From: an uncultured Spirochaetota bacterium
Lineage (GTDB): Bacteria > Spirochaetota > Spirochaetia > SZUA-6 > Fen-1364
Reading direction: 5' to 3'
DNA: 64,000 nucleotides
NCBI GenBank assembly: GCA_963745235.1
Contig: CAVUXE010000029.1
Span: 137,507 to 201,506 of the forward strand
Shown: in pieces, positions 34,981-53,404 of the stretch
How the letters are laid out: each line of letters starts with the position of its first letter
How positions within the stretch are numbered: position 1 is the stretch's first letter
Notes under the pieces: model-generated
Told to the model about the DNA's origin: nothing
What the model saw: only the letters and a program-made list of their open reading frames with translations
Database searches by the model: none
Program-made: the position numbers and the translations under genes

Positions 34981-37263
34981 ATGTCTCACCTGTCGAATGC
35001 AACGATGTTCGAGACCGTCTCCCTCTGGGTGGTGCTTGGCATTGCCGTCCTCGGGCTTCTCTATGCGCTCCTTCTGCGCAAGCAGGTCCTGCGCAACGAC
35101 AAGGGCAGCTCGCAGATGCAGCTCATCTGGAACGCCATCCGTGAAGGCGCTGACGCCTACCTGGGGCGGCAGCTGCGGACCATCATTCCGCTGATCCTCA
35201 TTCTGACTGTCGTTCTTTTCCTCTCCGTCTTCGTCGTGGCACCGAGCGAGGCGGCCAGCGCCCGGTTTGCAGGCTACGCGGACGGGCAGATCAGGCTGTT
35301 CGTCGGATTTGCGAGGGCAATTGCCTTCATCATGGGGGCAGTCTTCTCCCTCCTCGTCGGGCAGTTCGGCATGCGCATGGCGGTGCAGGGCAACGTCCGT
35401 GTCGCCGCCGCGGCTCGCACCAGCTTCGCGGATGCCCTGAAGATTGCGTACCGGTCGGGGACCATCACGGGGATGCTGACCGACGGCCTCGGGCTCCTGG
35501 GCGGAACGGCCATTTTCCTCTACATGGGGATGGACGCCCCGGATGCTCTTCTGGGCTTCGGCTTCGGCGGGACCCTCCTGGCTCTCTTCATGAGGGTTGG
35601 GGGAGGCATCTACACGAAGGCCGCTGACGTCGGCGCGGACCTCGTGGGCAAAGTGGAAGCGGGCATGCCGGAGGATGACCCGCGCAACGCCGCGGTCATC
35701 GCGGACCTGGTCGGTGACAACGTCGGTGACTGCGCCGGAATGGCCGCGGACATTTTCGAGTCCTACGAGGTAACCATCGTCTCGGGATTGATCCTCGGCG
35801 TGGCGCTGGTCATGGCCACAGGAGACTTGAAGTGGATCATCTTCCCGCTGCTCGTGCGCGGGATCGGCGTCCTTTCCTCCATCGTCGGCACCTACCTGGT
35901 GCGGGGAAGCAAGAAGGCAGGGGGAAACGAGAACGCCCTCGCCTCGATCAACAGGGGCTTCTATTCGTCGGCGGCCATCTCCCTCGTTGCATTCTTCATC
36001 CTGGCCATGCTCTACATGCACGAGTGGCGCGCGTTCCTCTCCGTGGCCGTTGGTATCATCCTGGCAATCGCTCTTGATGAGCTGACCAAGTACTTCACGG
36101 ACACACACCACAAGCCGGTCAAGGACATTGCGGCGGCAACCAGAACGGGACCCGCAACCGTCATCCTGCGCGGCCTCGTGGTCGGCTTCGAGGCGACAGT
36201 CTGGCAGGCCATCGTGATCGGTCTGACAATCCTCGCCGCCGTTCTCATCTACTGGGGCCAGGACGTCGTCTACGTCCTGTACGGCGTGGCCATGACGGGC
36301 ATCGGGATGCTGACCCTGACGGGCAACAACGTCGCCATGGACTCCTTCGGCCCCATCTGCGACAACGCGAACGGGATCGGAGAAATGGCCGGGCTGGACC
36401 AGAAGGCCCGGCAGATCATGGCGGACCTGGATGCGGTGGGGAACACGACCAAGGCCATCACCAAGGGCGTTGCAATCGGCTCCGCGGTCATTGCCGCCGT
36501 GTCGCTCTTCGGATCGTTTCTCACGGACGTGTCCCTGGTGCAGAAGACTCTCGGGTTTGCAAAGGAGACCTGGCTGACCGTGACGGGCATCCGGATCTCG
36601 GTGCCGAATGTCTTCATTGGCATGCTCATCGGAGGCACCATCCCGTGGCTGTTCTCCTCCCTCACCGTCAACTCGGTGGCGCGCGCCGCCGGGCTGATCG
36701 TGGAAGAGGTCCGGCGCCAGTTCAAGATCCCCGGCCTCCTCGAGGGCAAGGTCAAGCCTGACTACGGCCAGACAGTATCCCTGTGCACCAAGGCCGCGCA
36801 GCGGGAGCTCATTCCGTTGGCCCTGATCGCGGTCCTTTCCCCCATCGCCGTGGGGCTTCTCCTGCACGTCGAGGCCCTGGGCGGCTTCCTCGCGGGAGTC
36901 ATCCTCTCCGGCCAGCTGCTGGCGGTCTTCATGGCCACCTCCGGCGGCGCGTGGGACAACGCGAAGAAGACAATTGAGGACGGCCTGTACGGCGGCAAGG
37001 GATCGGAAGCGCACAAGGCCTCAGTCATCGGCGACACGGTCGGAGATCCCCTCAAGGACACCTCGGGTCCGGCCCTCAACCCGATGATCAAGGTCATCAA
37101 CCTCGTGTCCCTTCTTGCGGCGCCCCTTCTCATCTCGCTCACAATGTCCGTCGGCGTGGCAATTGCGGGAGCCGTGTGCGTCGTGATCATCCTCGGCTCC
37201 TTCTGGTTCTCCAAGCGGGGAGGATTTGCCCGGGCGGCGGGAAAGAGCGCGGCGAACTTTTGA
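34981..37263 (+). CDS. hppA: Membrane-bound pyrophosphatase, K+-independent type
   Basis: GGGIYTKAADVGADLVGKVE, EDDPRN, DNVGDCAG, GNTTKAITKG (Lys determinant), GDTVGDPLKDTSGPALN. Confidence 0.95.
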   Translation: MSHLSNATMFETVSLWVVLGIAVLGLLYALLLRKQVLRNDKGSSQMQLIWNAIREGADAYLGRQLRTIIPLILILTVVLFLSVFVVAPSEAASARFAGYADGQIRLFVGFARAIAFIMGAVFSLLVGQFGMRMAVQGNVRVAAAARTSFADALKIAYRSGTITGMLTDGLGLLGGTAIFLYMGMDAPDALLGFGFGGTLLALFMRVGGGIYTKAADVGADLVGKVEAGMPEDDPRNAAVIADLVGDNVGDCAGMAADIFESYEVTIVSGLILGVALVMATGDLKWIIFPLLVRGIGVLSSIVGTYLVRGSKKAGGNENALASINRGFYSSAAISLVAFFILAMLYMHEWRAFLSVAVGIILAIALDELTKYFTDTHHKPVKDIAAATRTGPATVILRGLVVGFEATVWQAIVIGLTILAAVLIYWGQDVVYVLYGVAMTGIGMLTLTGNNVAMDSFGPICDNANGIGEMAGLDQKARQIMADLDAVGNTTKAITKGVAIGSAVIAAVSLFGSFLTDVSLVQKTLGFAKETWLTVTGIRISVPNVFIGMLIGGTIPWLFSSLTVNSVARAAGLIVEEVRRQFKIPGLLEGKVKPDYGQTVSLCTKAAQRELIPLALIAVLSPIAVGLLLHVEALGGFLAGVILSGQLLAVFMATSGGAWDNAKKTIEDGLYGGKGSEAHKASVIGDTVGDPLKDTSGPALNPMIKVINLVSLLAAPLLISLTMSVGVAIAGAVCVVIILGSFWFSKRGGFARAAGKSAANF

Positions 37264-38919: not shown

Positions 38920-39009
38920 AATGGTAAGGTGGCGCTCGCGAAGCCCGATGTCAAGGCAAACGGGCGTTTCGCCTTGACCGGACATCCCGCGCGGCATTAT
39001 ACACGTCTC

Positions 39010-40288
39010 ATGGCCGAGCACGCACGCACGGAGGCGGGCGACGCTCCACTCCCTCTGGAAAGCCACGTTCCTCGTGTCCCTTCCCTTCGGCGTGCTTTCC
39101 TTTGCCCTGCCGATCTACGGCAGAATGCTCAAGGCATCGGCATTCGAGATCGGGGCGCTCTTCTCCGCGGCGGCTTTCTTCCCGGTCATCGTGCGGCCAT
39201 TCCTGGGGCGTTTCCTGGACCGGCACGGCCGCCGGCCTTTCCTCCTGGCCGGCCTGGCCGCCTATGCAGTTTCCATGGCGCTGCTCTGCGCGGCAAAGAC
39301 GGTCCTCGTGCTCGGCATCGGCCGCTTTGTCCAGGGCATGGGCCAGGCCCTTCTCTGGATGTCCGCGTATGCCATCGTGGCGGACCTCTCCCGGGCGGAC
39401 GGACGGGGCAGGGGCTTCGGCGCCATTGATGAGGCCACGAACAGGGGCGCCCTTTTCGGCGTCCTGCCGGGTCTCCTGGCCATGGTCCTCATGCAGTTTG
39501 CGGGCCTCTCCTGGCAGCTCGCCTGGCCGGTCCTGTTCGGCGGGTACGCGCTTGCCGCCTGCTGCGGCCTTCTCCTCGGGACGAGGCGCATCGGGGAAAC
39601 GCGACCCGCGGCGGGGCGAAGGATCACCTCGCGCCCCCTCTCCTTGCAGATTGCGGCGCTCATGGGGATCGTGTTCATCACCGGGGCTTCCACCGCCATG
39701 GTCTGGCCCATCATCGTGATTTTTCTCCAGGATAAGCTGGGAGCAAGCGCCATAACACTCGCTCTCGCCTACCTTCCGGCCGCGCTCGTCTCGAGCTTTC
39801 TTCCCTCGCGGCTGGGGAGGATCACGGACCGCTTCGGCCGCAGGCCGGTGATGGCCGTTGGCCTCGCCATCGGCGCCGTCGCCTCCGCCCTGATTCCGCA
39901 GCTTTCAAGCCTCATCCTGCTCGCGCTGTTGTGGGGAGTGGATTCCCTGGGTTACACGGCCTCGTTTCCCGCCGAGCGCGCGTTTGTTGCCGACATTGCC
40001 GGAAGCGACGCGCGGGGCACGAGCTACGGCCTGTATACGTTTGCCTACTTCCTGGGGACTGCCATTGGCCCGCTCGCGGGCGGCTGGCTCTATGACGCTC
40101 TCGGAAGGGCTTCGCCCTTCTACGCGAACAGCGTGATGCTTCTGGCCGCCGCTGTCCTGGTCATGACCCTGCTTCGGGAGCCTGCGCCAGGCATCGTGAA
40201 AGAGCCTGGACTGCCTCCTCGACTGCCTGGGCCACTTCAGGAGTCAGCCCGGCGTCGAATTCCAGGGACCGGGGCTGGATCCCCATGA
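39010..40288 (+). CDS. MFS transporter (probable frameshift near the N-terminus)
   Basis: GRFLDRHGRR and GRITDRFGRR motif A copies, about 12 TM helices. Confidence 0.88.
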
Positions 40289-40688
40289 TGGAGACCGCGC
40301 AGCCAGTCTCATGCGCCAGGTAGCCTGCCAGGACGCTCAGGGGGAGAGCGTGCGTGCCGAAGGACATCCCGCCGATCTCCTTCGGATCGACCAGTCGGAT
40401 TGTCCCCGGTTCTTCTCCCATGTCCGCGGTGTCGACAATGATCAGGTGGGAAGGGGAAAGCTGCCTGATTTCCCCGGTGAGATTCTCCGGCGCCGTGCCG
40501 CCGGCAAGCGCGCGCACATCCGGGAAATGGAGAGACTCGATGCGCTCGGCGATAAGGACGCCTGCCGCATCATCCCCGCGGAGCTCCGCGCCGACGCCCA
40601 GAAGGACGACCCGTCGCTTCCGCCCCTGCCCGGGACGCCTTTCGCTAAGGGCTCTCGTCAGGGCAGGCGCCAGCTGCGGGTTCCGCAT
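40161..40688 (-). CDS. hycI: Hydrogenase maturation endopeptidase HycI
   Basis: LGVGAELRGDDAAG, GGTAPEN, IIVDTAD, THALPL, GIQP. Confidence 0.9.
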   Translation of the reverse strand: MRNPQLAPALTRALSERRPGQGRKRRVVLLGVGAELRGDDAAGVLIAERIESLHFPDVRALAGGTAPENLTGEIRQLSPSHLIIVDTADMGEEPGTIRLVDPKEIGGMSFGTHALPLSVLAGYLAHETGCAVSIMGIQPRSLEFDAGLTPEVAQAVEEAVQALSRCLAQAPEAGS

Positions 40689-41049
40689 GGAAGGTGACTT
40701 TCAGCGTTCCTCGGTCAGTCTGCGCGAGCTCGAAATCAGTCGAGATCTCGATCACCTTGCGGGGGCAGGTTTCGGCGCACTGCGCGCAGTACACGCATTT
40801 CCCCAGGTCTATGGAGGCCTCGAACTTGCGGTCCCCGACCTTCGTGATGGTGATTGCCTGCGACGGGCAGTCCCTGATGCAGAGGCGGCAGCCCGTGCAC
40901 TTGGAGGAATCAAACTTCGGCGCGCCGCGGAAATGGTCCGGCATCCTGAAGCTGGCGTACGGGTACTTGATGGTTGCGGGCTTCTTGAACAGGGAGCCGA
41001 GAACGGAAAAGATCATCCTCCCCGGCCGCCAGGGATGTTTATCGCTCAT
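40645..41049 (-). CDS. 2x[4Fe-4S] subunit (NuoI/HycF/EchF-like)
   Basis: KPATIKYP, CTGCRLCIRDCP, CVYCAQCAETCP. Confidence 0.9.
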   Translation of the reverse strand: MSDKHPWRPGRMIFSVLGSLFKKPATIKYPYASFRMPDHFRGAPKFDSSKCTGCRLCIRDCPSQAITITKVGDRKFEASIDLGKCVYCAQCAETCPRKVIEISTDFELAQTDRGTLKVTFHAEPAAGACPDESP

Positions 41050-41051
41050 GG

Positions 41052-41993
41052 CTATAACAGCTCCTTCACGACAAGGTCAACGAGGACCTGCAGGAATGCA
41101 ATGGGTGCGACGACCTTCCAGCAGAAATTGATCATCTGGTCCAGCCTCAGCCGCGCGAAAACCGTGCGCAGGAGAGCAAGAACGGCAAGGATTGCCAGGA
41201 TCTTCGCAAGGTACACGAGAAATGCGAGCCAGGGCGCCAGCCCGAAACCGAAGGGCAGAAAGACGGCCGCCACAAGGGACGCTGAAACGATGGCCTCGGT
41301 GTCGATGGCCAATCGGAAGAACGCGAGAAACCGGCCCGAGTATTCCGTGAACGTGCCGGCAACGATCTCCGTCTCCGCCTCGGGGATGTCGAAAGGAACC
41401 TTCTCCAGCTTCCCAAGGAGAGTGACCATGGCAACGGCAAGGCCGATGAGGTTGAACAGCCATCGCCCGGGATGCGACGTGTAGTACTGCACCATGCCGG
41501 AGATGGACCAGGTGTTGGCCAGCAGGGCGGGGGAGATCACCGCTATCAGGAGCGGGATCTCGTAGGCGAACAGCTGCGTGATTGACCGCACTGCCCCGAG
41601 GGTCGAGAAGATCGAACGAGAGTACCAGCCACCCAGGAAGAAGGTGAGCGTCGGAATGAGAAGCAGGTACAACACCACCAGAAGGTCCCCTTCGAATGCA
41701 AGCAGGGGTTTTGCGTTCCACAGGGGAATGTAGAAAGAAGATGCGATGACCGCCCCCAGGGCGAACACGGGGGCCAGGGTGAACATCCGCTTGTCCGCTT
41801 CCTCCGGGATCACGGATTCTTTTCCCAGCAGCTTGAAGAAATCCGCGACGGGCTGGAACCAGGGGGGGCCGACCCGGTTCTGCAGCCGGGCGTACAGCTT
41901 CCTGTCCACGAACTGCCCGGCCAGGCCCAGGATGATCAGAAAGAAAAACCCGGGGAAAATAAGCATCTGAAAGAGAGCCGCTGCAGCTGTCAT
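41052..41993 (-). CDS. Membrane anchor subunit (NuoH/HycD/EchB-like)
   Basis: RKLYARLQNRVGPP, ADFFKLLGKE, PFDIPEAETEIVAG..TEYSG. Confidence 0.92.
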   Translation of the reverse strand: MTAAAALFQMLIFPGFFFLIILGLAGQFVDRKLYARLQNRVGPPWFQPVADFFKLLGKESVIPEEADKRMFTLAPVFALGAVIASSFYIPLWNAKPLLAFEGDLLVVLYLLLIPTLTFFLGGWYSRSIFSTLGAVRSITQLFAYEIPLLIAVISPALLANTWSISGMVQYYTSHPGRWLFNLIGLAVAMVTLLGKLEKVPFDIPEAETEIVAGTFTEYSGRFLAFFRLAIDTEAIVSASLVAAVFLPFGFGLAPWLAFLVYLAKILAILAVLALLRTVFARLRLDQMINFCWKVVAPIAFLQVLVDLVVKELL

Positions 41994-43222
41994 GCCGCGG
42001 AACCTCCCCGAAGGGTGATCCGTGAAGGATCGATTCCTTTGCGCCGGTAGAAATCCACCCCGTAGCGCGAAAGCTCCTCCCAGCTCATGACCCGCCGAGG
42101 CCCGCTGCCGTGATCGTTGATGCCGATCATGCGGTCCGTGCAGGAGAAGCACGGGTCAATGGCGGCAATGACGATGGGAAGGTCAGCAAGGTAGCCGTCT
42201 TCCAGCATTTTTGCCACCGCCTGCGTGTTGGCCAGCGTCGGTGCCCTCACTTTTACGCGTTCGGGCTTCTCGGTTCCGTTCGCGCGCACGTAGTGAACGT
42301 CCTCTCCTCGCGGGGCCTCGTAGCGGCTCACGGCCTCCCCCTCGGGAATCCTTCGAGGCGCCTTTACGAGAATCGGTCCGTCCGGGATGTTCTTCACGAG
42401 CTGACGGATGATGGAATACGCCTCCATCAGCTCCCCAAGGCGGACCACTGTCCTGCCGTACACGTCGCAGTGGTTGTCCGTGACGACCTTGAATGACACG
42501 TCCCTGTACGCGCCATAGGGATCATCACGCCGGGTGTCGCGGTCCACCCCCGAAGCGCGCGCCGTGGGACCAACGGCTCCCAGGGCCAGCGCGTCTTCCT
42601 TCGACAGCTTCCCGACGTTGGCAAGCCGCTGACGCAGCGTCTCCTCTGTCTGGGCAAGCTCGATGTAGTACTTCGTGCGCTCCTCCAGGGAGTCGACGAC
42701 CTTGAGAATGCTGGGCAGCTGCTCCGAGGTGATGTCACGGCGCACCCCCCCCAGCGTGTTGAGACCGTAGTTGACGCGGTTTCCCGTGAGCTGGGCAAGG
42801 AGGATCATCACCAGTTCCCTGTCCCGCCACGTGTACATGAGGAGAGTGTCGAACCCTATCTCGTGACCGGCCACGCCGAGCCACAAGAGGTGGCTGTGGA
42901 CCCGCTCGAGCTCCGCGACGAGGGTCCTGATGTACAGCGCGCGCCGCGGGACTTCGAGCCCGGCAATCTCCTCCACCGCCTGCACGAAGGCCGTGGAGTG
43001 CGAGTACGAGCAGATCCCGCAGATGCGCTCCACCAGGTAGAGGTCCTGGGTGTACGAGCGCTGCTCGCATCCCTTCTCGATTCCGCGGTGGTTGTAGCCG
43101 AATCGCATGCGCACCGCGTCGATCTTCTCCCCGCGGAGGTCAATCATGAAGCTCTCCGGCTCCTTCAGGGCGGGGTGCTGGGGCCCGACCGGGATCTGGA
43201 CGATATGCTCGATGTCGCTCAT
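41990..43222 (-). CDS. Group 4 [NiFe]-hydrogenase large subunit
   Basis: GPQHPALKEP, L1 ERICGICS, YEAPRGE, L2 DPCFSCTDR followed by a C-terminal extension. Confidence 0.95.
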   Translation of the reverse strand: MSDIEHIVQIPVGPQHPALKEPESFMIDLRGEKIDAVRMRFGYNHRGIEKGCEQRSYTQDLYLVERICGICSYSHSTAFVQAVEEIAGLEVPRRALYIRTLVAELERVHSHLLWLGVAGHEIGFDTLLMYTWRDRELVMILLAQLTGNRVNYGLNTLGGVRRDITSEQLPSILKVVDSLEERTKYYIELAQTEETLRQRLANVGKLSKEDALALGAVGPTARASGVDRDTRRDDPYGAYRDVSFKVVTDNHCDVYGRTVVRLGELMEAYSIIRQLVKNIPDGPILVKAPRRIPEGEAVSRYEAPRGEDVHYVRANGTEKPERVKVRAPTLANTQAVAKMLEDGYLADLPIVIAAIDPCFSCTDRMIGINDHGSGPRRVMSWEELSRYGVDFYRRKGIDPSRITLRGGSAA

Positions 43223-43728
43223 GTCTTTGTTTCTCCCTGGGGTGCCGGTGCGGCAGCATCGGGTGCGGCCGCTGCCGCCGGAGCACCAGCCGGCTTCCAG
43301 TCTTTCAGAAGGGGATGCTGGTCCGTGGGCCATTCGTCGGGCAGCGGGTAGCGGGGCCCCGGCGGCAGGCCTTCCACGCGCGCCCCGAGAAGATCTTCCA
43401 GCTCCCGCTCGTAGATCGAGGCTCCCGTGAAGAATGGCGTTACCGTCCTGATGGACCGGCCCTTGGGGCAGCGGGTCTTCAGGTTCACCATGACCCCGCC
43501 GTCCTTGGCGAGATGATATATGAACTCCAGGTCCGCGCCCACGTCCAGACCCGTGATCGTGCAAAGAGTGGAGAATCCCATGGTCTTCACGAGGTGCTCG
43601 AAGACCTGGGGGAAGCTCTCCTGCGGCACGTCGACCCACACCCGCCTCTCCCGCTGGATTCTCACGGACGCGGCCAACTGGGGGAACGTCGCCTCCAGAC
43701 CCGCTTTTACCGCCTCGGTTTCACTCAT
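43219..43728 (-). CDS. NuoC-like subunit (EchD/MbhK)
   Basis: LCTITGLD, YERELEDLLG, DEWP..HPLLKDW. Confidence 0.9.
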   Translation of the reverse strand: MSETEAVKAGLEATFPQLAASVRIQRERRVWVDVPQESFPQVFEHLVKTMGFSTLCTITGLDVGADLEFIYHLAKDGGVMVNLKTRCPKGRSIRTVTPFFTGASIYERELEDLLGARVEGLPPGPRYPLPDEWPTDQHPLLKDWKPAGAPAAAAAPDAAAPAPQGETKT

Positions 43729-44162
43729 TTCTGCTCCTCGAGCTTCTTGATCAGCTTGACGAACCCGTCGATGATGGCCTGCGGGCTTGCCGGGCAGCCG
43801 GGGATGTAGGCCGTGACGGGAATGGCCTTGTCAATCCCGCCCTCGACGTTGTACAAGCCCTCGAACACGCCCCCGCTGGTCGCGCAGCTTCCCACCGCCA
43901 CCACGATCTTCGGCTCCGGAACCTGCTCGTAGATTCGAATCAGCCGGGAGCGGATCTGCTTGGTGACCGGGCCCGAGCACGCCATGATGTCGCAGTGACG
44001 CGGGGTGCCCTTGAGCTGGACACCGAGGCGCTCCAGGTCGAAACGCGGCGTCAGCGCTGCGATGATCTCTATATCGCATGCGTTGCATGCCCCCGTGTTG
44101 AAGTGAAGGATCCAGGGAGACTTGCGCTGCGCCCAGCGCACGATTCTATGGAAAACGCTCAT
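43725..44162 (-). CDS. Hydrogenase small subunit (NuoB/EchC/MbhJ-like)
   Basis: GACNACDIE, TPRHCD, VGSCATSGG, IPGCPASP. Confidence 0.93.
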   Translation of the reverse strand: MSVFHRIVRWAQRKSPWILHFNTGACNACDIEIIAALTPRFDLERLGVQLKGTPRHCDIMACSGPVTKQIRSRLIRIYEQVPEPKIVVAVGSCATSGGVFEGLYNVEGGIDKAIPVTAYIPGCPASPQAIIDGFVKLIKKLEEQK

Positions 44163-44168
44163 AGGGCG

Positions 44169-44501
44169 CTACCTCCGAAACAGCATGAACAACCCGAGCA
44201 AGGCGCCCAGGACGTAGATTGCCGCAATGGACAGGCTCTCCAGCGTCCGGGCCGGCGATGTGGCTACGATCAGCGTAACCACGTGCATGATTGTAAAAAA
44301 GAATGCAAACGGGAAGAACTGGCCGTAGTCGGGCTGGAACCTGTGCTTCTGCACATCCTCTCCGCCGGCGTACGGCTTGTCAAGCGCCCCTCGCGGGCCC
44401 TTGCGCTTCAGGGACAGCGTGCCCGAGGCCGTGGAGAGCGCCCACACGACGATGAGGATGATGGTGAAGGCAACCGGGGGGACGAGGAGCAGGATTGACA
44501 T
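44169..44501 (-). CDS. NuoA-like membrane subunit
   Basis: Three TM helices, KPYAGGE loop, FAFFFTIMHV. Confidence 0.7.
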   Translation of the reverse strand: MSILLLVPPVAFTIILIVVWALSTASGTLSLKRKGPRGALDKPYAGGEDVQKHRFQPDYGQFFPFAFFFTIMHVVTLIVATSPARTLESLSIAAIYVLGALLGLFMLFRR

Positions 44502-44505
44502 CTCG

Positions 44506-44826
44506 CTACCCCTTGAGGTTCCGGGTGTTGCGCACGTTCATGGAGTCGTGCGCCCGGAAGAAGCCCAGGATGATCCCGGCGGCAACCACCACCACCACCA
44601 CCTCGATCACGATCACGGTTATCACCATGGCCTGCGCCAGGGCCAGGCGGTGGCCCAGGTACCCGGCCACGATCAGGAAGAAGGTCACGGACTTCATCAG
44701 GATCTCCAGGCCGATCAGCATCCGCAGGAGGTTGTACGTCGCCAGCATGCACCACGCGCCGTCCACCAGGAGCAGGACGAAGAAGGCGAAGTACAGCCAG
44801 AAAGACTGGGGGATGTCAATTGTCAT
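44506..44826 (-). CDS. NuoK/MnhC-like subunit
   Basis: NLLRMLIGLEIL, ITVIVIEVVV. Confidence 0.8.
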   Translation of the reverse strand: MTIDIPQSFWLYFAFFVLLLVDGAWCMLATYNLLRMLIGLEILMKSVTFFLIVAGYLGHRLALAQAMVITVIVIEVVVVVVAAGIILGFFRAHDSMNVRNTRNLKG

Positions 44827-45310
44827 CTTTGCTTTCCCTCTTGAATAATACCAGAACGCCGATGACGCCGGCGAGGAGGATGAGGATCTGGCCGAACAGG
44901 TCCAGCTGGCGCAGGTTCCACAGAACGACGCGGACGTCTCCTTCGGCGCCCGGCACCGGGAGGGCAACCTGCACGGGCGAGTGGACGAACGAAAGCGCCA
45001 CGCCCGCCGCAACGAGGACCAGGGGCAGGGGCCAGAACCGGGTGAGCCGGCTTGCGCGCCGCACCACGTAGTCCTTGAAGGGCTTCCTCTGCGTGAGGCT
45101 GATGACGCTGACGAAGACCACGGAGATCAGCCCCGCGCACACGGAAAGCTCCAGCACGGCGGCAATGGTCGCCCCGAGGGTATACATGACCACCGCCAGC
45201 ATTGCGCTTGCCAGCGCAAGGGCAATGGTGGCGCGCAGAAGAAGCGTCGTCATGGATGCCCAGAGCCCCGCGAGCACCAGGAGAACGAGAAGGATCGTCA
45301 TGAGGGTCAT
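44816..45310 (-). CDS. NuoJ/MnhB-like subunit
   Basis: AAVLELSVCAGLI, LWNLRQLDLFGQ. Confidence 0.75.
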   Translation of the reverse strand: MTLMTILLVLLVLAGLWASMTTLLLRATIALALASAMLAVVMYTLGATIAAVLELSVCAGLISVVFVSVISLTQRKPFKDYVVRRASRLTRFWPLPLVLVAAGVALSFVHSPVQVALPVPGAEGDVRVVLWNLRQLDLFGQILILLAGVIGVLVLFKRESKDDN

Positions 45311-46720
45311 TGGCCGCCTCCGAGCAGCATCGACAGAACGAAGGGGAACCCGAGCCCGATGGCCACGGTGATCAGGGAGAGCGCCAGCGCGGGCACCAGG
45401 AGCCTGCCGCCTGCCTCTTTCACGGAAGCCCATTCGGGAAGCGGCGTGCCGAAGAACACGCGCCGCTGCAGGGAGAGGAAGTAGCCCAGGGTGACGAGGC
45501 TCGTGAGGACGGCGATGGCTGCAAACGTGTACTGCCCGACCTGCCAGAGCGCAATCACGATGAGCAGCTTGCTCCAGAACCCGGCCAGCGGCGGCAGCCC
45601 CGCGATGGAAAGGGAGGCGACGGCGGATGTCCCGGCGGTGACAGGCATGCGGGATCCCAGGCCGCCCATGCGGTCCATGGAAACGGTCCCGAGCTGCTCC
45701 TCAATGGCCTCGGCGTTCGCGAAGAGCTGGCTCTTCGAGACCGCGTGGTTGAAGAAGTGCAGCGCCGCGGCCACGATCCCCAGCTGCGGGGAACCCCCCA
45801 GGGCCAGGACGATGTAGCCGATCTGGCTCACGCTGGAATACGCCAGCATGCGTTTCATGTCGGACTGCGTGAGCGCAAGGAATGCGCCGACAACGAGGGT
45901 GACCGCCCCCACCACCAGGAAGATCCACCGGGCCGGGCAGCGCATCAGCGAAGACTGACTGGGCCAGCCGCATGAGCGCGAATACTCCCGAGGCCTTTGT
46001 CACGATCCCCGCCATGAAGATCGAGGCGGGGGCGGGGGCCGCGCTGTAGGCGTCCGCCAGCCATCCGTGGAACGGCACGAGGCCGCCCTTGATGAAGAGG
46101 CCGCACAGGAAAAGGGCCGCCGCAATCCACGGTATGGGCCCGGGAGAAGCCAGGGCATGCGTGACGGCGGCGAGGGATACCCCTCCTTCGACCAGGATGT
46201 ACAGGGCGATGGAGGAAAGCATGAGGACGCTTGCGACCGCGGAAAGGACCACGTACTTCCATGCCCCCTCGAATGCGTCCGTGCCATGGCGGATCGCAAC
46301 GAGGATGAAGGTCGCAACCGCGGTCACCTCGATGAACACGTACAGGGAGAAAAGGTCCCGCACCATGGAGATCCCGTTGATGCCGATCAGGGCCACCAGG
46401 ACGAGGTTGGCGAAGAGGAACCTCTCGCGTCCCGTCTTCAGACCAGGACCCGCCGCCATGAGGGACGCCATTCCGGCAAGACCCGCGCTCAGGAGAAGCA
46501 GGATGCTGAGGTTGTCCATGGATACGCGCAGGCCGATGGCCGCATCGACCGGATCCAGCGCGGACCAGTCCGTCAGCCCGAGGGGCTGGAGAACAACGGC
46601 AACTGTCTGCAGGGCAAGCACGCCGAATGCAATCCAGGTTGCCGCGGGACGCGCCGACCGGGGGAGGAGGTTTGCCAGGATGAGGGCGGCGAATGGCACA
46701 AGAAGGAGAAGGTGACTCAT
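45307..46720 (-). CDS. Antiporter-like subunit (MrpD/NuoN type), frameshift near 45940
   Basis: LYVFIEV, IKGGLVPFHGWLADAY, KRMLAYSSVSQIGY, NHAVSK, GLPPLAGFWSK. Confidence 0.88.
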
Positions 46721-48570
46721 TTTCCACCCCCAAGGACTGCAAGAACCGCCAGGACCACCGCCACCGCCCCCGCGAGGGACCACAGCACGTACCTGTTGAC
46801 GTTGCCGTTGTGGAAGAACCGGCTGATGCGGGATATTCCCAGGGCGGAGCCCACGGCAACGGTCTCATACATCCAGTCAAAAGCCCTGTCGATCCCCCAG
46901 AGCGCGACGGCACCGCCTTTGACGACCCAGCGGCCGATTGTGTAGGGGTCGATCTGCCCTTTCTCAGCTGCCGAGTAGATCGAAGCGAGCACCGGCGCGT
47001 GGTGGATGTGGTCAGCCGCGCCCAGGCCCCGGCCGGTCCTGCGCACGCCGAAAATGTGGTTCAGAACGGCAAGCGCGAGGGCAAGGAGCGTCATCCCCAC
47101 CAGCAGGGCACTGGCGGGGAAGCCGGCAAAGCTTGCGCCGCCGGTGACTTTTTCTCCGACAGCGGGCTGCACCAGCGAGCCAAGGGGCAGCTGGTTGGCG
47201 ACGCCGAAGAGCACGCACAGCGCCGCCAGCACGATCATGGGAACGAGCATGGGCCACGGCGCCTCTTTCACGTTCTTCGTCTGCTCGGTGGGCTTGCCGA
47301 AGAATGCGGCGTGTCCCAGCTTGAGGAACGAGGCCGCCGTGAGGACGGAGCCGAGCAGGGCCGCTGCGTAGAAGATCCAGCCGCGCTCCAGGGCCCCGTC
47401 GTAGACGAGCTCCTTGGAGAAGAACCCGTTGAAGGGAGGGACACCGGAAATCGAGGCGGCCGCCACGATGAAGCTGATTGCGGTCACGGGCATGCGCCGC
47501 GCAAGGCCGCCGAGCTTTTCCAGGTCCGTGGTCCCCGCCTGTTTTTCAACCGCTCCTCCCGTGAGGAAGAGGCAGGATTTATACATGGCATGGTTTACCA
47601 TGTGGAAAAGGCCGCCCACGATGCCCGCCGGTACCGCCGTCCCGATGCCGAGCACCATGTAGCCGACCTGGCTGATGGCGTGGTAGGAGAGGAGGCGTTT
47701 GTAGTCCTTCTGGACCAGCGCCATCATGACCGCAAACAGGATGGTGACCGCGCCGATGATCATGAGCACCGTGCTGACCCAGGTCCCCGGGGCCAGCTCG
47801 AAGAGATCCAGGGAGATGCGCGCAAGGAGGTAGATCCCCAGCAGCTTGTCGATGCTCGCCGGCAGGATTGCCATGAAGGGGAGGGGCGCGTCTATTGCCG
47901 CGTCCGGGATCCAGCTGTGAAACGGCATTGCCCCGGCCTTGCCGATGGCGCCCGCCATGAGAAGGAGGAAGGCTGCTCCGCCCAGGCCGTCCAGGGGAAG
48001 CCGTATGGCGGACATCGTGAGTGTGCCTGCCAGCCGGCCCGTGATCATGACGCCGAACATCAAGGCGAGGTCGGAAACCCCCAGGATGATGAATGCCTTG
48101 ATGGCGGTGGCGTACGGCCTGCTGCGGCCGGCGGCGATCATGGCGAACTGGGTCAGCAGGAGTCCCTCGCCGAAGAACAGCAGAAGGACCAGGTTGTTCG
48201 CCAGCACCATCCCGCTCGCCATGGCCAGCGTGAAGAGCACCCAGGCGTGAAACTGGCGGGCGCGGGGCGCGTTCATCATGAAGGCAACTGAATAGAGGGA
48301 AATGAGGATTCCGAAGCCGGCCGTGGCCAGAAGGATGAAAGCGCTCATCCGGGAGAGCACCAGCGAGATTTCCACCCCGTAGCCCAGCCACGGCAGCGTG
48401 AGCGCCATGTCGTTCGGGAAGAGAAGGATGGCCACCATCAGCTCCGCGGCGCTGGCTGCCACCGCGATCAAGCCGGGCAGGACGGCGCGTTCGCGTGAGG
48501 GCAGAATGAGCGCCAGGAGACCGGCAGCCGCGGGGACGAGGATGGGCAGGATCAAGAGGTTCGGATTCAT
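46717..48570 (-). CDS. Antiporter-like subunit (NuoL/MrpA/HyfB type)
   Basis: GKAGAMPFHSWIPDA, KRLLSYHAISQVGY, NHAMYKSCLFL, GVPPFNGFFSKE, NuoL-like C-terminal tail. Confidence 0.9.
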   Translation of the reverse strand: MNPNLLILPILVPAAAGLLALILPSRERAVLPGLIAVAASAAELMVAILLFPNDMALTLPWLGYGVEISLVLSRMSAFILLATAGFGILISLYSVAFMMNAPRARQFHAWVLFTLAMASGMVLANNLVLLLFFGEGLLLTQFAMIAAGRSRPYATAIKAFIILGVSDLALMFGVMITGRLAGTLTMSAIRLPLDGLGGAAFLLLMAGAIGKAGAMPFHSWIPDAAIDAPLPFMAILPASIDKLLGIYLLARISLDLFELAPGTWVSTVLMIIGAVTILFAVMMALVQKDYKRLLSYHAISQVGYMVLGIGTAVPAGIVGGLFHMVNHAMYKSCLFLTGGAVEKQAGTTDLEKLGGLARRMPVTAISFIVAAASISGVPPFNGFFSKELVYDGALERGWIFYAAALLGSVLTAASFLKLGHAAFFGKPTEQTKNVKEAPWPMLVPMIVLAALCVLFGVANQLPLGSLVQPAVGEKVTGGASFAGFPASALLVGMTLLALALAVLNHIFGVRRTGRGLGAADHIHHAPVLASIYSAAEKGQIDPYTIGRWVVKGGAVALWGIDRAFDWMYETVAVGSALGISRISRFFHNGNVNRYVLWSLAGAVAVVLAVLAVLGGGK

Positions 48571-50000
48571 CTGGCCACCCCCGGCATCTGGCTGATCGCT
48601 GTCTGGGCAAGCTGCGCCGGCCACCCCACCAGGAAGCCGGCGGCAAGGGACAGAACGGCAAGGGCGACCACGCAGGCCACCATCAGGGAGGAGCCTTCCG
48701 CGGCCAGCTTCCCCCTGGTCTCGCCAAGGAACACGCGGCTGAACAGGCGGAAAAGGTACAGGATCGTGAGCACCGCCCCGACCATGAACACCGAGCTGGT
48801 GGCAATATGCCCGGCGCCGACGGCGGCGGAAACCACCATGTATTTGCCGAAGAAGCCGCCCAGGGGCGGGACCCCCATGACGGAGAATGCGCACAGGAGG
48901 AACGCCACGGCGGTGACGGGCATCGTGCGGAAAAGCCCGCCCAGCTTCGTGATGTCCTTGGTGCCCGCGTTCTGCTCGACGATCCCCGCTGACAGGAAAA
49001 GGCCGGCCTTGGCGAGGCCGTGCATGAGGATGTACAGGAGCGCCCCCAGCGCGCCAAGCGCGCTCCCCGTGGCCAGGCCCAGGAAAATGAAGCCGATCTG
49101 GCTCACCGTTGAGTAGGCGACGATCCTCTTGAAGTCGGTGTCCACCAGCGCCGCCCCCGCGCTCACCAGGGCGCTGGCCGCCGCGATGATTGCGACCGCG
49201 GTGCGCATGGACTCATCCAGGGCGAACGTTGCAAGGAACAGGCGCGCAAACACGTACACGCCGATCTTGACCAGGACCGCGGCGTGCAGCAGCGCCGTCA
49301 CGGGGGATGGGGCGACGCCCGCGTCAGGAAGCCACGTATGGAAGGGGAGCGTGGCGGACTTGGAGAGCATTCCCACCAGGAGGAGCGCCGAAATGGCCCA
49401 GGGAAGGGCCCTGCCTTTCAGCTGGTCCAGGTCGAAGGTGCCCGTGAGGCCGTTGACGGCAAGGATTCCCAGCAGCATGACCAGCGCGCCGAACGCGGTG
49501 ACCAGGAATGCCTTGTCCGCGCGCAGGACATCGGTCTTGCTGCGGTAGAAGCCGATGAGCCGCCAGCTCGCGATGCCGGTGATCTCCCAGAAGACGTAGA
49601 GGAAGATGAGGTTCGCGGAGAAGATCAGCCCCATCATGGCGCCCAGGAAGAGCACGGCCATGAGGTAGTACTCGTCCTGGTTCTGGTAATGGCTGATGTA
49701 GTCCCAGGAGAAGAGGATGATGATGGCGCCCACCAGGGAAGAAACGAGGGCCATGAACACGGCAAGCGCGTCCGCCTCCAGGTGGAAGGACAGGCCCAGC
49801 GGTCCGTTCAGGAGGAAGGACGCCGTCTGGCCTGCCAGGGCCCCCGGCACCAGCGCAATGGACGCCGCCAGGGACACCAGCACGAACACCAGGGCAAGCA
49901 GGTTTCGCAGGCGCACGGATGCGAGGCCTGCAAGAGGCAGGAGGAACGCCCCGGCGAGCGGCACGATGACAGCGATGAGAGCCCAGAGTCCACTCTGCAT
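48567..50000 (-). CDS. Antiporter-like subunit (MrpD/NuoM/L type)
   Basis: YVFWEITG, KSATLPFHTWLPDA..APSPVTALLHAA, AYSTVSQIG, HGLAKAGLFL. Confidence 0.9.
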   Translation of the reverse strand: MQSGLWALIAVIVPLAGAFLLPLAGLASVRLRNLLALVFVLVSLAASIALVPGALAGQTASFLLNGPLGLSFHLEADALAVFMALVSSLVGAIIILFSWDYISHYQNQDEYYLMAVLFLGAMMGLIFSANLIFLYVFWEITGIASWRLIGFYRSKTDVLRADKAFLVTAFGALVMLLGILAVNGLTGTFDLDQLKGRALPWAISALLLVGMLSKSATLPFHTWLPDAGVAPSPVTALLHAAVLVKIGVYVFARLFLATFALDESMRTAVAIIAAASALVSAGAALVDTDFKRIVAYSTVSQIGFIFLGLATGSALGALGALLYILMHGLAKAGLFLSAGIVEQNAGTKDITKLGGLFRTMPVTAVAFLLCAFSVMGVPPLGGFFGKYMVVSAAVGAGHIATSSVFMVGAVLTILYLFRLFSRVFLGETRGKLAAEGSSLMVACVVALAVLSLAAGFLVGWPAQLAQTAISQMPGVAR

Positions 50001-50052
50001 ATATACTCCCAGGATTTACGAGTGTCTTTTTTTCTTCGAAACGGGGGGCCTG

Positions 50053-50793
50053 CTACTGCTGCTCGACAATGTCGATGTCGACCCGCCGGTTGTACGACCT
50101 GCCTTCCGGCGTATCGTTGGACTGCACGGGTCGGGTGTCCCCGTACGCCGATTCGGAAAGCCGGTCTGACTGCACGCCGTAGTCCTCCAGGGCCTGGAGC
50201 ACAGAGATGGCGCGCTCACCGGAGAGCTGCCAGTTCGAGACCCACTTTTTGGGATCAGGCGGAACATTATCCGTATGTCCTTCCACGATCACGGAGTTCG
50301 GAATCCTCGAAAGGAAGTCGCTCACTTCCTGGAGCACCGGCATCGCATCCGCCCCGAGATCTGCTGACCCGGAGCCGAAGTACAGGTCCGACGTGAGCGA
50401 TATTGCGAACCCGCGGTCTGTTGGGATCACGCGCACTCTACCTGATTTCACGAGGTTCTGCAAGGAGGAAAGCGCCTGTGTGTGAAGGGTGGATTGCCCC
50501 CCCGTTCCCTGTTTTTTCCCCGCGCCCCGGGACTCCACCTTCTGGCCCGATGTGACGCCCGGCAGGACGCCAGCTCCCCCGGTGGTGTTCTGGTCGAAGA
50601 TCGTGAACTCCCCGCCGTTGAACACACTGGCCAGGGCCTGCGCAAGCTGCGTGTATTTAGCGGTGTCGACGTTGCTCATCGCGTACAGAATGATGAAGAA
50701 AAGCATCAGGAGCGTGATCATGTCCGCATAGGTGAGAAGCCACCTATTCAGGTCTTCCTTGTGCTCCCTCTGGCGCCGTATCCTCCTGGCCAT
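50053..50793 (-). CDS. motB: Flagellar stator protein MotB
   Basis: WLLTYADMITLLM TM with the conserved Asp; OmpA-like EGHTDN, NWQLSGERA, NRRVDI. Confidence 0.92.
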   Translation of the reverse strand: MARRIRRQREHKEDLNRWLLTYADMITLLMLFFIILYAMSNVDTAKYTQLAQALASVFNGGEFTIFDQNTTGGAGVLPGVTSGQKVESRGAGKKQGTGGQSTLHTQALSSLQNLVKSGRVRVIPTDRGFAISLTSDLYFGSGSADLGADAMPVLQEVSDFLSRIPNSVIVEGHTDNVPPDPKKWVSNWQLSGERAISVLQALEDYGVQSDRLSESAYGDTRPVQSNDTPEGRSYNRRVDIDIVEQQ

Positions 50794-50828
50794 CTGTCAA
50801 TCCCTTCCACTGCCACTCAGCCGCGCGC

Positions 50829-51626
50829 CTAGTCGGCGCGCGTCTCGTCCAGGGCCTTCTTATCGCGTTCCTCGAGAAAGCCCTCTATCTTTTCTTTCAC
50901 GAGCGCCGGACTCTCTCCCTGCTGGATGGAGCGCACGCCGACGATGATGAGCTGCTTCTCCAGCCGGAACTGTTTTACCTGATTCTTCAGCTTGTTGGCA
51001 ATGGGCAGCCAGATGAGGTTCGCAAAGGATATGCCGTACAAGGTCGCAATGAAGGCAACGGCGATGGATCTGCCCAGCTCCTTCGTGTCCGCGCCCAGCC
51101 TTCCAAGAACGAGGACGAGGCCCATGACCGTTCCGATGATTCCCATGGTGGGGGAGAAGCCGCCCGCAGTCTCGAAGAGAGCCGCTTCCTCCATCTTGCG
51201 CTGCTCCACGATGGCAAGATCGCTTTCCAGCACTTCCACGAGGATTTCTGATTCCGTCCCGTCCACGACCAGCCGCAGCCCCTTTCGGAGCGTCTCGTCC
51301 TCCAGGTCCTCGACCGTATCCTCGAGGCTGAGGATCCCGTCCCGCCGCGCCTTTTCTGCGAACTCAAGGAGCTGCTGGGCGAGCTGCGGCGAGGGACCGG
51401 GGACTCTGCGAAGGGACTGGCGGACAAGCCGGGGGATGCCGAGCACCTCTTTCAGGCTGTACGAGATCGTGCAGGCGCCCAGGGTGCCCAGCACGATGAT
51501 GATCAGGGCGCTGACACCGACAAGGCCCATCGGGTTTCCGCCCTCCAGGAGGAAGCCCAGGAGCAACCCCCCGAAACCCATGATGAGCCCGATTGCCGTC
51601 GATGTATCAGAACCTCTTCTGGCCAT
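50829..51626 (-). CDS. motA: Flagellar stator protein MotA
   Basis: ARRDGILSLE, GGFSPTMGIIGTVMGL, AFIATLYGI..ANL.WLPIANKL. Confidence 0.93.
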   Translation of the reverse strand: MARRGSDTSTAIGLIMGFGGLLLGFLLEGGNPMGLVGVSALIIIVLGTLGACTISYSLKEVLGIPRLVRQSLRRVPGPSPQLAQQLLEFAEKARRDGILSLEDTVEDLEDETLRKGLRLVVDGTESEILVEVLESDLAIVEQRKMEEAALFETAGGFSPTMGIIGTVMGLVLVLGRLGADTKELGRSIAVAFIATLYGISFANLIWLPIANKLKNQVKQFRLEKQLIIVGVRSIQQGESPALVKEKIEGFLEERDKKALDETRAD

Positions 51627-51712
51627 CGAATACTCCTTGTCGCATTACAATTCTCCATTATAGAGAGTCGGAGAGTCCAACGCCATACATAAGGCAAAGC
51701 GTAAGGGGGGGG

Positions 51713-52027
51713 CTAGCTCTCCATCTGGATCAATGTGTCGAACTTTATCATCTTCAGGAGCTGTGCTATCTGCGGGCTGCATTTACGGATGGTGAGCTTG
51801 ATGCCTTTCTGGTCGCACTGCGTGCGGAAGTGCAGGAGCTTCCCGATGGCGGAGGAGCTGAGGCTCTTCAGGCCCTCGAAGTTGAGGACAATTGCACCCT
51901 TGGCGCGCCCGAGGGCTTCCGCCAGCCTGGCGGCAAGCTCATCCATGTCTTCCCGGGCAAGGTGGCCCGTTGTCAGCACTTCAATCTCTCCTGAGGCCCC
52001 TTCTCTCACCTGGATCATGTCTGCCAC
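51713..52027 (-). CDS. STAS-domain anti-sigma factor antagonist
   Basis: IVLNFEGLKSLSSSAIGKLL. Confidence 0.85.
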   Translation of the reverse strand: MADMIQVREGASGEIEVLTTGHLAREDMDELAARLAEALGRAKGAIVLNFEGLKSLSSSAIGKLLHFRTQCDQKGIKLTIRKCSPQIAQLLKMIKFDTLIQMES

Positions 52028-52030
52028 CTC

Positions 52031-53404
52031 CTACAAGGCCTTCAGGAGATCCACGAAATACGGAAGGACCTGCTTTTTGCGGGAGAGGATGCCCTTCATC
52101 TCGAAGAGGTTCTCTTCCGCGCGGGGGTAGGAGATGGCGCCGAGCACGCGCGACTCACCCCGGCACAGGAGGAGGCTCGTCTCCCGAGAGACGTCGGTAA
52201 TCATCAGGCCCGCGAACGAGCAGGCCTCTGCGGTGATGATCCCGTCCAGCACGTCCACCAGCCCGCCTTTCAGCGACAGTATCTGGCTGAAGCCGATGGT
52301 CTCGAACTGGCTGAGGCTGAAGCGCCTCTCCCCCTCGGTGAACACCTTCCGGTCCCTTTCAACGATCTTCTTCGCGTCCATGCCCTCCAGGGAGGACCCC
52401 GCGGCGAACATGGCGGCGCCATGCTTCTCGATGTCCACGCCGCTCAGGGCGGCGAGCCACGCGGCAAGCTCCCTGTCCAGGGGCGTCGTGGTGGGAGAGT
52501 GAAGGATGATGGTGTCAGACAGCATGGCGGAGAGCATGAGGCCGGCGTCCCGGGCGGTGGGGGCGGCCCCGGCTGTCCGGTAGAGGTCCGCGATGATGGT
52601 GCAGGTCGAGCCGACCACCCGGTTGATGAACGTGATGGGAAGGCTCGTGGTGCGTGCCGCCAGCCGGTGGTGGTCGATGATTTCCTGGACGTCCGCCTCT
52701 TCGATCCCGTCCACCGCCTGTCCTGTCTCGTTGTGATCCACCATGACCACGCGCAGCCTGTTCTCCGCCAGGAAGTTCACCCGGGTGATCACCCCCGCGA
52801 GGCTCTTTTCCTCTCCCAGGATGATGAAGCCGCCTTCGTTGCTCTTGCCGATTGCGCGCTGCACGTCCTTGACCAAGGCGTCCGGCGAGAAGGTGGTGTG
52901 ATCCCGTTCCACGAGCGCGCCGATTGTGCCGGCCAGGAGGTTTCTCTCCGTTTCGCCGATGGGCTCATCATCACGGCACCTCTTCACCAGGCCGCTCAGC
53001 ACGGAGACGAGCCGCAGCGTGGTGAGCTTGCCGAGGCATTTGCCGTCCGGCCCGATGACGGGAAGGAACGAGAAGCGGTTCGCCGTGAGCAGGTCGCACG
53101 CCTTCTGCAGCGTGTCCTGCTCCTTCAGGGCTATCAGGTCCTCCCGGGGGATCATGATGTCCTCGATGCGCGAGCGCACATCCGTGACCAGCGGAGGGGC
53201 GTCCGTCTCGAAGCGCGAGAGGACGAACTGGGTCTGCGGGTTGACGTTTCCGGCGCGCCGCGCAATGGCCTCCTCGTGAAGCACCTCGGTCTTCAGCCGG
53301 GCATACACGAGGGCCGCGCAAATGGAGTCGGTGTCCGGGTTCTTATGCCCGACGACGATGAGAGGTTTCTGGCTTCGGGGCATCGCTTTCCTCGTGGCGA
53401 CCAT
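52031..53404 (-). CDS. ppaC: Mn-dependent family II inorganic pyrophosphatase with CBS pair (no DRTGG)
   Basis: GHKNPDTDS, VDHNE, IIDHH, VGSTCTI, SRKKQV; start may be 53383. Confidence 0.9.
   Translation of the reverse strand: MVATRKAMPRSQKPLIVVGHKNPDTDSICAALVYARLKTEVLHEEAIARRAGNVNPQTQFVLSRFETDAPPLVTDVRSRIEDIMIPREDLIALKEQDTLQKACDLLTANRFSFLPVIGPDGKCLGKLTTLRLVSVLSGLVKRCRDDEPIGETERNLLAGTIGALVERDHTTFSPDALVKDVQRAIGKSNEGGFIILGEEKSLAGVITRVNFLAENRLRVVMVDHNETGQAVDGIEEADVQEIIDHHRLAARTTSLPITFINRVVGSTCTIIADLYRTAGAAPTARDAGLMLSAMLSDTIILHSPTTTPLDRELAAWLAALSGVDIEKHGAAMFAAGSSLEGMDAKKIVERDRKVFTEGERRFSLSQFETIGFSQILSLKGGLVDVLDGIITAEACSFAGLMITDVSRETSLLLCRGESRVLGAISYPRAEENLFEMKGILSRKKQVLPYFVDLLKAL

Follow-up and report, generated by a model that had tools for sequence, protein, structure and literature searches.

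An uncultured spirochaete operon for a group 4 membrane-bound [NiFe] hydrogenase with a membrane arm of the complex I type

What kind of enzyme results where a [NiFe] hydrogenase large subunit is joined to a whole set of complex-I-like membrane subunits, and does it release H2 or consume it? The question is raised by a 64,000-nucleotide stretch of DNA (hereafter the window; positions 137,507 to 201,506 of contig CAVUXE010000029.1, assembly GCA_963745235.1) from an uncultured soil/peat spirochaete, which carries twelve genes almost without spacing on its minus strand, from position 50000 down to 40161. By its gene content, this twelve-gene operon is that of a group 4 membrane-bound [NiFe] hydrogenase together with a HycI protease. 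A first-pass annotation of the window had listed these subunits at 40161-50000 of the minus strand; all the genes that it named are present according to Pfam, NCBIfam and our own profiles, and its description of a group 4 energy-converting hydrogenase with intact Ni ligands, a protease of its own and a full complex-I-type membrane arm is borne out. We put the probability at about 0.7 that the locus encodes an eleven-subunit group 4 [NiFe] hydrogenase plus HycI which carries out ferredoxin-driven H2 evolution with proton translocation, a frameshift in one of its antiporter genes (ant3) being an assembly error.

The large-subunit gene (41990..43222) encodes a 410 aa protein of the NuoD/MbhL type that matches Pfam Complex1_49kDa (2.6e-70) and NiFeSe_Hases (2.1e-15). 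It displays the L1 motif CGICSYSH and the L2 motif DPCFSCTDR, the latter followed by a 46-residue C-terminal tail. All four Ni-Fe cysteines are retained, while such cysteines are lost in complex I, Ehr and Mbx. Relatives were taken from species-representative genomes, in which at least 597 stretches matched and 555 encode a relative, and the best 80 loci were analysed. With the patterns C[GS][ILV]C[AGNS]xxH for L1 and [DE][PL]Cx[AGST]Cx[DE][RL] for L2, as they stand in an excerpt of PMC7886697, L1 is found in 80/80 relatives and L2 in all 79 that have a complete C terminus, with tails of 35-53 aa. Going by phmmer scores, on which all relations to known complexes rest here, the best solved chains are Pyrococcus furiosus MbhL (6cfw_L, 2.6e-101) and Escherichia coli HycE (7z0s_E, 4e-82), followed by mycobacterial NuoD (6.6e-62) and MbsL (4.6e-52).

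Two other peripheral subunits keep the cysteines of their predicted cofactor sites. The small subunit (NuoB/HycG type, 145 aa, 43725..44162; Pfam Oxidored_q6 7.9e-29) has four cysteines, C26, C29, C93 and C123, kept in 76/76 sequences, and the NuoI-like 2x[4Fe-4S] subunit (134 aa, 40645..41049; Pfam Fer4 families, NCBIfam NuoI and HycF-type models at about 1e-25) has eight, kept in 68-69 of 69. They are accompanied by a NuoC-like subunit (169 aa, 43219..43728; Pfam Complex1_30kDa 1.7e-19) and by a NuoH-like membrane anchor (313 aa, 41052..41993; Pfam NADHdh 5.5e-73), in which a cluster of glutamates (E145, E197, E205, E207, E209, E217 and E233) is conserved in 72/72. At the level of sequence these data show a peripheral module in which an I-like subunit would hold two [4Fe-4S] clusters and a B-like subunit one, next to a C-like subunit and a D-like subunit with the complete Ni-Fe ligand set; the module is predicted to sit on the H-like anchor. 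The features of a group 4 [NiFe] hydrogenase are thereby all found: the small subunit is of the NuoB type with four Cys, a NuoI-type 2x[4Fe-4S] subunit accompanies it, the anchor is of the NuoH type, and antiporter-like subunits, of which a single one would suffice, are present.

Maturation genes complete the picture. The last gene of the operon (40161..40688) encodes a 175 aa HycI-type maturation endopeptidase (Pfam HycI 1.3e-21), which scores 133.7 bits against the TIGR00142 hycI equivalog model, above the cut-off of 119.1. In agreement with the first-pass annotation, neither hyp genes nor an electron-input module lie in the window; that annotation had also stated that a genome devoid of hyp genes would speak against its reading, and hypA, hypC, hypD, hypE and hypF are all present in this one (5.85 Mb in 104 contigs, 85.7% complete, 5.9% contamination; the window lies on its contig C29). 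hypF, hypC, hypD and hypE are found together on contig C35, beside a cytoplasmic group-3-type hydrogenase, and hypA on contig C52, followed by a MinD/NUBPL-type P-loop ATPase gene (PF10609, 7e-41); this arrangement is located at C52:176187-177377 (L100 746-1935). The signs of group 4 maturation, namely the C-terminal tail, a HycI equivalog above the cut-off and these hyp genes, therefore all occur in the same genome.

The membrane arm is built around three antiporter-like proteins. ant1 (48567..50000) encodes a 477 aa subunit of the MrpA/NuoL-core type that is devoid of a C-terminal extension (Pfam Proton_antipo_M 1.8e-68 and Proton_antipo_N), whose best solved chains are MrpA (6z16_A, 9.3e-57) and NuoL (8e9g_L, 1.7e-54) and whose residues E139, K214, K245 and K386 are kept in 57/57 sequences. 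ant2 (46717..48570) encodes a 617 aa NuoL-like subunit (Pfam Proton_antipo_M 2e-55) that matches the NCBIfam NuoL model end to end, over positions 3-612 of 615; the NCBIfam HyfD and HyfB models are among the top matches for ant1 and ant2. An AlphaFold2 model of ant2 (39-row alignment, predicted local distance difference test score (pLDDT) 84.1, predicted template modelling score (pTM) 0.82) displays a transmembrane (TM) helix at 488-512 and then, after some short helices, a helix of 45 residues (542-586) and a final TM helix (591-613), in other words a C-terminal lateral helix with a terminal TM helix. In a Foldseek search with this model the first rank is taken by the NuoL of mycobacterial complex I (8e9g_L, TM-scores of 0.80/0.79 over 642 aligned columns), E. 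coli and Thermus thermophilus NuoL reach about 0.75, and MbsH' comes only at rank 45. E135, K211 and K386 of ant2 align with E132, K216 and K385 of Nqo12. ant3 (45307..46720), which is split in two frames and yields 470 aa once an extra base is left out, encodes an MrpD/MbhH-like subunit with two Pfam half-matches, at profile positions 3-136 (1.6e-20) and 148-294 (4.2e-36) of Proton_antipo_M; the orthologue in a closely related Spirochaetia locus (L007) is nearest to MbhH and MrpD, with MbhH (6cfw_H, 2.3e-49) as its best solved chain. A glutamate, two lysines and a further lysine at matching spacing are kept in at least 95% of the 55-59 sequences for each of the three antiporter subunits, and we take these residues to be the canonical Glu(TM5)/Lys(TM7)/Lys(TM8)/Lys(TM12) set.

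Three small membrane proteins follow. The K-like subunit (NuoK/MrpC type, 106 aa, 44506..44826) is recognised by Pfam Oxidored_q2 (2e-14) and keeps E41 in 69/70 and E75 in 70/70 sequences. The J-like subunit (164 aa, 44816..45310) meets the Pfam NuoJ family only weakly (E 0.0034), while a profile built from 31 orthologues matches MbsD (7.5e-10), MbhD (2.6e-7) and NuoJ (6.6e-4); its N terminus resembles MbhD and its E54 is invariant (65/65). The A-like subunit (110 aa, 44169..44501), with three predicted TM helices and a Y-x-C/G-G-E motif, has no Pfam or NCBIfam match. Its profile, made from 32 sequences, matches 4 of 177,635 distinct sequences, all of them ND3/NuoA chains (E-values of 0.0042-0.69), the motif being aligned on F-E-C-G of ND3, and E48 and H73 are invariant (73/73). 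When the complex of this protein with the H-, J- and K-like subunits was predicted, the interface score (ipSAE) was 0.51 as the median of three runs as compared to 0.07 for the best control, with at least 77% of the contacts in agreement between runs and a partner pLDDT of at least 59, which amounts to weak support. The mark set for this score is reached by 116 of 157 solved complexes and by 2 of 215 mismatches, and only 18 of the 157 solved complexes, together with both mismatches, reach it with 0.60 or under; moreover, the score may reflect likeness only, since like complexes (complex I) have already been solved. As far as sequences can show it, the predicted membrane arm combines three antiporter-like subunits, of which one is NuoL-like with a lateral helix, with the small A-, J- and K-like proteins.

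With such a composition, the most likely function of the predicted enzyme is ferredoxin-driven H2 evolution coupled to proton translocation. Reduced ferredoxin, supplied for example by the pyruvate:ferredoxin oxidoreductase (PFOR) of this genome, would deliver electrons to the I-like subunit, from which they would pass through the small subunit to the Ni-Fe site, where protons would be reduced to H2; the H2-forming reaction would then power the translocation of protons through the complex-I-like arm. The cofactor would be inserted by Hyp proteins, whose genes lie elsewhere, after which HycI would remove the 46-residue tail. The enzyme is probably reversible. Besides PFOR, the genome carries RnfD and several FeFe hydrogenases, and acetyl-CoA synthase (PF03598) finds no match in its 85.7%-complete sequence; this gene profile would fit a fermenter making reduced ferredoxin.

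Several observations weigh against the reading of a proton-pumping, H2-evolving enzyme, and the first of them are energetic. The catalytic direction, the coupling ion and the stoichiometry are features that we infer. Three pump modules and an E-channel suggest that up to about 4 ions could be moved per H2, and the computed yield is only -7 to -17 kJ per H2 at 1 atm H2 (ferredoxin at -450 to -500 mV); at 1e-4 to 1e-5 atm H2 it rises to -30 to -45 kJ per H2, enough for about 1.7-3.1 ions per H2 where the membrane potential is 150-180 mV; four would require a potential near 100 mV. About 4 ions being affordable only at very low H2 and about 100 mV, it follows that not every module pumps in each turnover, or that the enzyme often runs in reverse. 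The higher ion stoichiometry suggested in the first-pass annotation is accordingly not supported: in energetic terms such a ratio would require very low H2 together with a low membrane potential. A second group of observations concerns the parts list. The 110 aa protein may be NuoA-like, a weak assignment given its E-values of 0.004-0.04 and its weak complex score. The GTPase-type HypB (TIGR00073) finds no match in the genome; the MinD-type ATPase gene beside hypA encodes a candidate stand-in, by analogy with Thermococcus kodakarensis, where a MinD-type ATPase serves as HypB according to the part of PMC13202556 at hand, the present case being a bacterium. No RNA run is listed for the stretch. 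Finally, the deposited assembly does carry the ant3 frameshift, which leaves room for a strain-specific pseudogene.

The alternative that survives best, unlikely but to be taken seriously, is that the enzyme works mainly in reverse, oxidising H2 and reducing ferredoxin by an inflow of several ions per H2, with the gradient set up by a H+-pyrophosphatase and/or by ATP synthase running backward. A complex-I-like number of pumps means a high ion/electron ratio, which would suit uphill ferredoxin reduction better than forward pumping, and a reverse role has been proposed for the archaeal hydrogenase Hfo (PMC7886697, in the sections available). The neighbourhood of the operon also speaks in its favour. 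A gene for a membrane pyrophosphatase (34981-37263, plus strand; Pfam H_PPase 3.3e-244) is situated 2.9 kb past hycI; its product carries the GNTTKA signature of the K+-independent class, and its best solved match is 8b37, a K+-insensitive H+ pump. To our knowledge, all characterised pyrophosphatases of the K+-independent class pump H+. Such a gene is found in the retrieved DNA of 28/80 loci; when only the 38 loci with 2.5 kb or more upstream and 4 kb or more downstream are counted, the figure is 19. In six loci it shares the strand of the operon and precedes it by 128-218 bp. No description of a pyrophosphatase-hydrogenase gene linkage specific to the bacterial operon was found in the open-access literature searched. 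In the present locus, by contrast, the gene is convergent with the operon and 2.9 kb away, and thus not co-transcribed with it. The PFOR, Rnf and FeFe hydrogenase genes likewise fit a fermenter disposing of reduced ferredoxin, as does the missing acetyl-CoA synthase match in a genome that is 85.7% complete.

Somewhat less probable again is a stronger version, in which a bacterial hydrogenase already in possession of the entire complex I membrane arm, with a lateral helix of the NuoL type, a NuoA/J/K trio and three intact pump modules, would act as a high-ratio H2:ferredoxin machine moving about 3-4 ions per H2. It would pump only at extremely low H2; otherwise the gradient of the frequently linked H+-pyrophosphatase would reverse it, to make reduced ferredoxin from H2. 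If this were true, no living bacterial model would stand closer to the transition from hydrogenase to complex I, and the enzyme would provide a route, linked to pyrophosphate, to low-potential electrons.

A sodium gradient as the net output, with some of the antiporter arm working as a secondary Na+/H+ exchanger in the manner of P. furiosus MBH, is improbable. The large subunit is indeed closest to MbhL and ant3 to MbhH/MrpD, and papers on metagenome-assembled genomes (MAGs) describe the type as 'Mbh linked to Mrp' and as generating a Na+ gradient (PMC8542988, in the passages available). Against this, Pfam finds no MrpE/F/G-type (MbhA-C) gene among the 12 operon genes, all of which are otherwise assigned, MrpG (PF03334) has no match in the 85.7%-complete genome, and the linked pyrophosphatase is of the K+-independent class.

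The ant3 frameshift raises a further alternative, and a very improbable one, that the operon is decaying, with ant3 a true pseudogene and the complex either non-functional or down to two pump modules. What speaks for decay is the gene as deposited: alignment with the two closest Spirochaetia loci (L007 and L008) reveals a single surplus base at 45935, where the coding strand has a run of C; this base splits ant3 in two frames and was not reported in the first-pass annotation. Contigs at least 99% alike from 4/4 metagenome runs, belonging to four different studies, are without exactly this base; the source sample may itself be among these runs. Leaving the base out restores one continuous frame of 470 codons, and ant3 is a single open frame in 66/66 relatives that hold both halves. 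All the other genes of the operon are open. Unrelated genes of the same assembly are also split, namely hypD (C35:144410-145460), the group-3 large subunit (C35, about 150051-151423) and PFOR (C73:58074-61624), the last being in four pieces, in two frames and with one TGA, and these several unrelated cases suggest frequent indel errors in the deposited assembly. On the strength of the four runs, the intact relatives, the restored frame and the other split genes, we read the ant3 frameshift as a probable assembly error and not as a feature of the organism. As a practical warning, the deposited assembly holds frame errors in several hydrogenase-related genes. Least credible of all is a non-hydrogenase, an Ehr/Mbx/Fpo-like oxidoreductase with another acceptor such as quinone or sulfur: an eleven-subunit make-up is common to Fpo-like and Nuo-like complexes, and the best NCBIfam models for the D subunit are NuoD-type, under their cut-offs, against which stand the four Ni-Fe cysteines in canonical L1 and L2 motifs here and throughout the relatives, the cleavable tail with a HycI equivalog above its cut-off, and the hyp genes of the genome.

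How does the proposed H2-evolving hydrogenase compare with named systems? According to the parts of Loh et al. 2021 available (PMC7886697), the archaeal Hfo is the first [NiFe] hydrogenase with the 11 subunits and the gene order of Fpo/Nuo. Hfo (Bathyarchaeia, subgroup 4g-6) and the present operon both have counterparts of the 11 complex I core subunits, NuoA-D and NuoH-N, although the A-like match is weak here (E 0.004), and both have intact Ni-Fe motifs and are devoid of the NuoEFG/FpoFO input module and of the Mbh Na+ module. They differ in that Hfo is archaeal and follows the Fpo/Nuo order, while the spirochaete operon has its antiporter genes first and hycI last. P. furiosus MBH (group 4d, PDB 6CFW) offers the closest solved large subunit, an MbhD that the N terminus of the J-like subunit resembles, an MbhH to which ant3 is alike, and ferredoxin as the presumed common donor. 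In contrast, MBH has 14 subunits with one antiporter-like subunit and the MrpEFG-type MbhA-C, whereas the operon has three antiporter-like subunits, among them the NuoL-like one with a lateral helix, and a NuoA-like subunit, and is without MbhA-C. As to complex I (Nuo/Nqo) and the 11-subunit Fpo-like complexes, the same eleven core subunit types are found, the ant2 model superposes on NuoL with a TM-score of 0.80 and the pump residues are shared; in complex I NuoD has lost the Ni ligands and binds quinone, whereas in the operon the Ni-Fe site is retained, and so are a cleavable tail and a HycI protease.

Among bacterial enzymes, Hyf/FHL-2 (hydrogenase 4, group 4a) also has three antiporter-like subunits and a NuoK-like subunit, as stated in an excerpt of PMC13645896. 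Hyf has a fused C-D large subunit, a HyfA/HycB-type ferredoxin and a formate dehydrogenase partner, whereas the operon encodes C and D separately and contains neither a HycB-type nor a molybdopterin gene. We know of no NuoA- or NuoJ-like subunit in Hyf. Ech2 of Thermoanaerobacter kivui, a purified and H+-translocating enzyme, belongs to the HydDB catch-all group 4g, to which the present type can probably be assigned as well, and is a ferredoxin:H+ oxidoreductase, with the coupling demonstrated for Ech2 itself (PMC9356269, in part). It has eight subunits (A1, A2, B, C, D, E, F and HycB2), with no J/K/A-like trio in the portion of that source available; this 4g complex, characterised but differently composed, is thus not the one of identical make-up that the first-pass annotation had thought would count against it.

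The operon type itself is common in uncultured anaerobes and is already catalogued. A protein search returned at least 8000 matches, the best 120 of which are 73-100% identical. In the best 80 loci, all 13 query pieces are colinear and in the same order in 49; the other 31 are without at least one piece, most of them being contigs cut by their ends. Labels at the phylum level number a dozen or more among these 80 and include Spirochaetia, Bipolaricaulota, Thermotogae, Omnitrophota, several Planctomycetota orders, Elusimicrobia/Endomicrobiales, Saganbacteria, Margulisiibacteriota, Verrucomicrobiota, Kiritimatiellia, Krumholzibacteriaceae, Victivallis and others; the closest relatives are labelled as Spirochaetia MAGs. 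The locus of Velamenicoccus archaeovorus (L056) has the same gene order and a large subunit that is 72% identical, and the membrane-bound hydrogenase of this organism is published as HydDB 4g in the accessible part of PMC10066038, so that the label 'group 4g-like' proposed in the first-pass annotation fits the literature. Papers on Antarctic-lake Omnitrophota and Cloacimonadota call such enzymes 'Group 4g Mbh linked to Mrp' (PMC8542988, in excerpt), and group 4g is described, in the passages available of PMC5037454 and PMC13582414, as a loose, polyphyletic bin. The novelty that the same annotation had claimed, on the premise that Ech and Hyc have one antiporter-like subunit and Ehr/Mbx-type complexes no longer have their Ni ligands, was overstated, because both the three-antiporter Hyf/FHL-2 (PMC13645896) and the archaeal 11-subunit Hfo (PMC7886697) are in print, as the portions available of these papers state, and because the bacterial operon is widespread and catalogued. 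In the open-access literature searched for three-antiporter group 4 enzymes of this make-up, nothing specific to the bacterial operon was found. The present copy adds little beyond another host lineage, the Spirochaetia.

As for the layout of the locus, the genes follow one another as ant1, ant2, ant3, J, K, A, B, C, D, H, I and hycI, which is not the A B C D H I J K L M N order of Fpo and Nuo. Six junctions are 4-nt overlaps and three are gaps of 2-6 nt, while J and K overlap by 11 nt and I and hycI by 44 nt. The twelve family assignments come from Pfam and NCBIfam, with profiles of our own for the A-like and J-like proteins. Around the locus the G+C content is about 0.62-0.66, and this high value accounts for the many spurious open reading frames in the window. 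Scans of 39000-52500 gave 1 promoter-like site where 1.7 were expected and 16 terminator-like sites where 8.8 +/- 2.9 were expected, none of them at the operon ends.

Directly upstream of the operon, on the same strand and after a 52-nt gap, lie the stator genes motA and motB (50053-51626, minus strand). A functional link between them and the hydrogenase was considered and rejected: the arrangement recurs only in the two closest Spirochaetia loci, 2 of the 80, and we therefore treat it as local synteny. Upstream of motA, a gene at 52031-53404 (minus strand) encodes a DHH/DHHA2 protein with an inserted CBS domain, probably a family II soluble pyrophosphatase, so that the region holds genes for both a soluble-type and a membrane pyrophosphatase. 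Elsewhere in the genome, contig C52 (about 94500-102400; L097) carries a second group 4 [NiFe] cluster. Its large subunit is a NuoC-D fusion in which L1 and L2 are intact and the tail is 12 residues long; the cluster also encodes a small subunit, a 2x[4Fe-4S] subunit, a NuoK-like fusion protein and a pair of antiporter-like subunits. A true NuoD gene lies on contig C58, and on contig C9 (about 194200-199300; L098) two antiporter-like proteins are encoded together with a NuoH-like one, next to a partial match to Complex1_49kDa.

This type of enzyme, in which a presumably working Ni-Fe site is combined with a full pump arm in the style of complex I, occurs in many uncultured anaerobes that live in peat, sediments and groundwater. 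Its ion-to-electron ratio, its coupling ion and its direction matter for energy conservation by fermenters and syntrophs close to the thermodynamic limit, and the same properties bear on the origin of complex I from hydrogenases.

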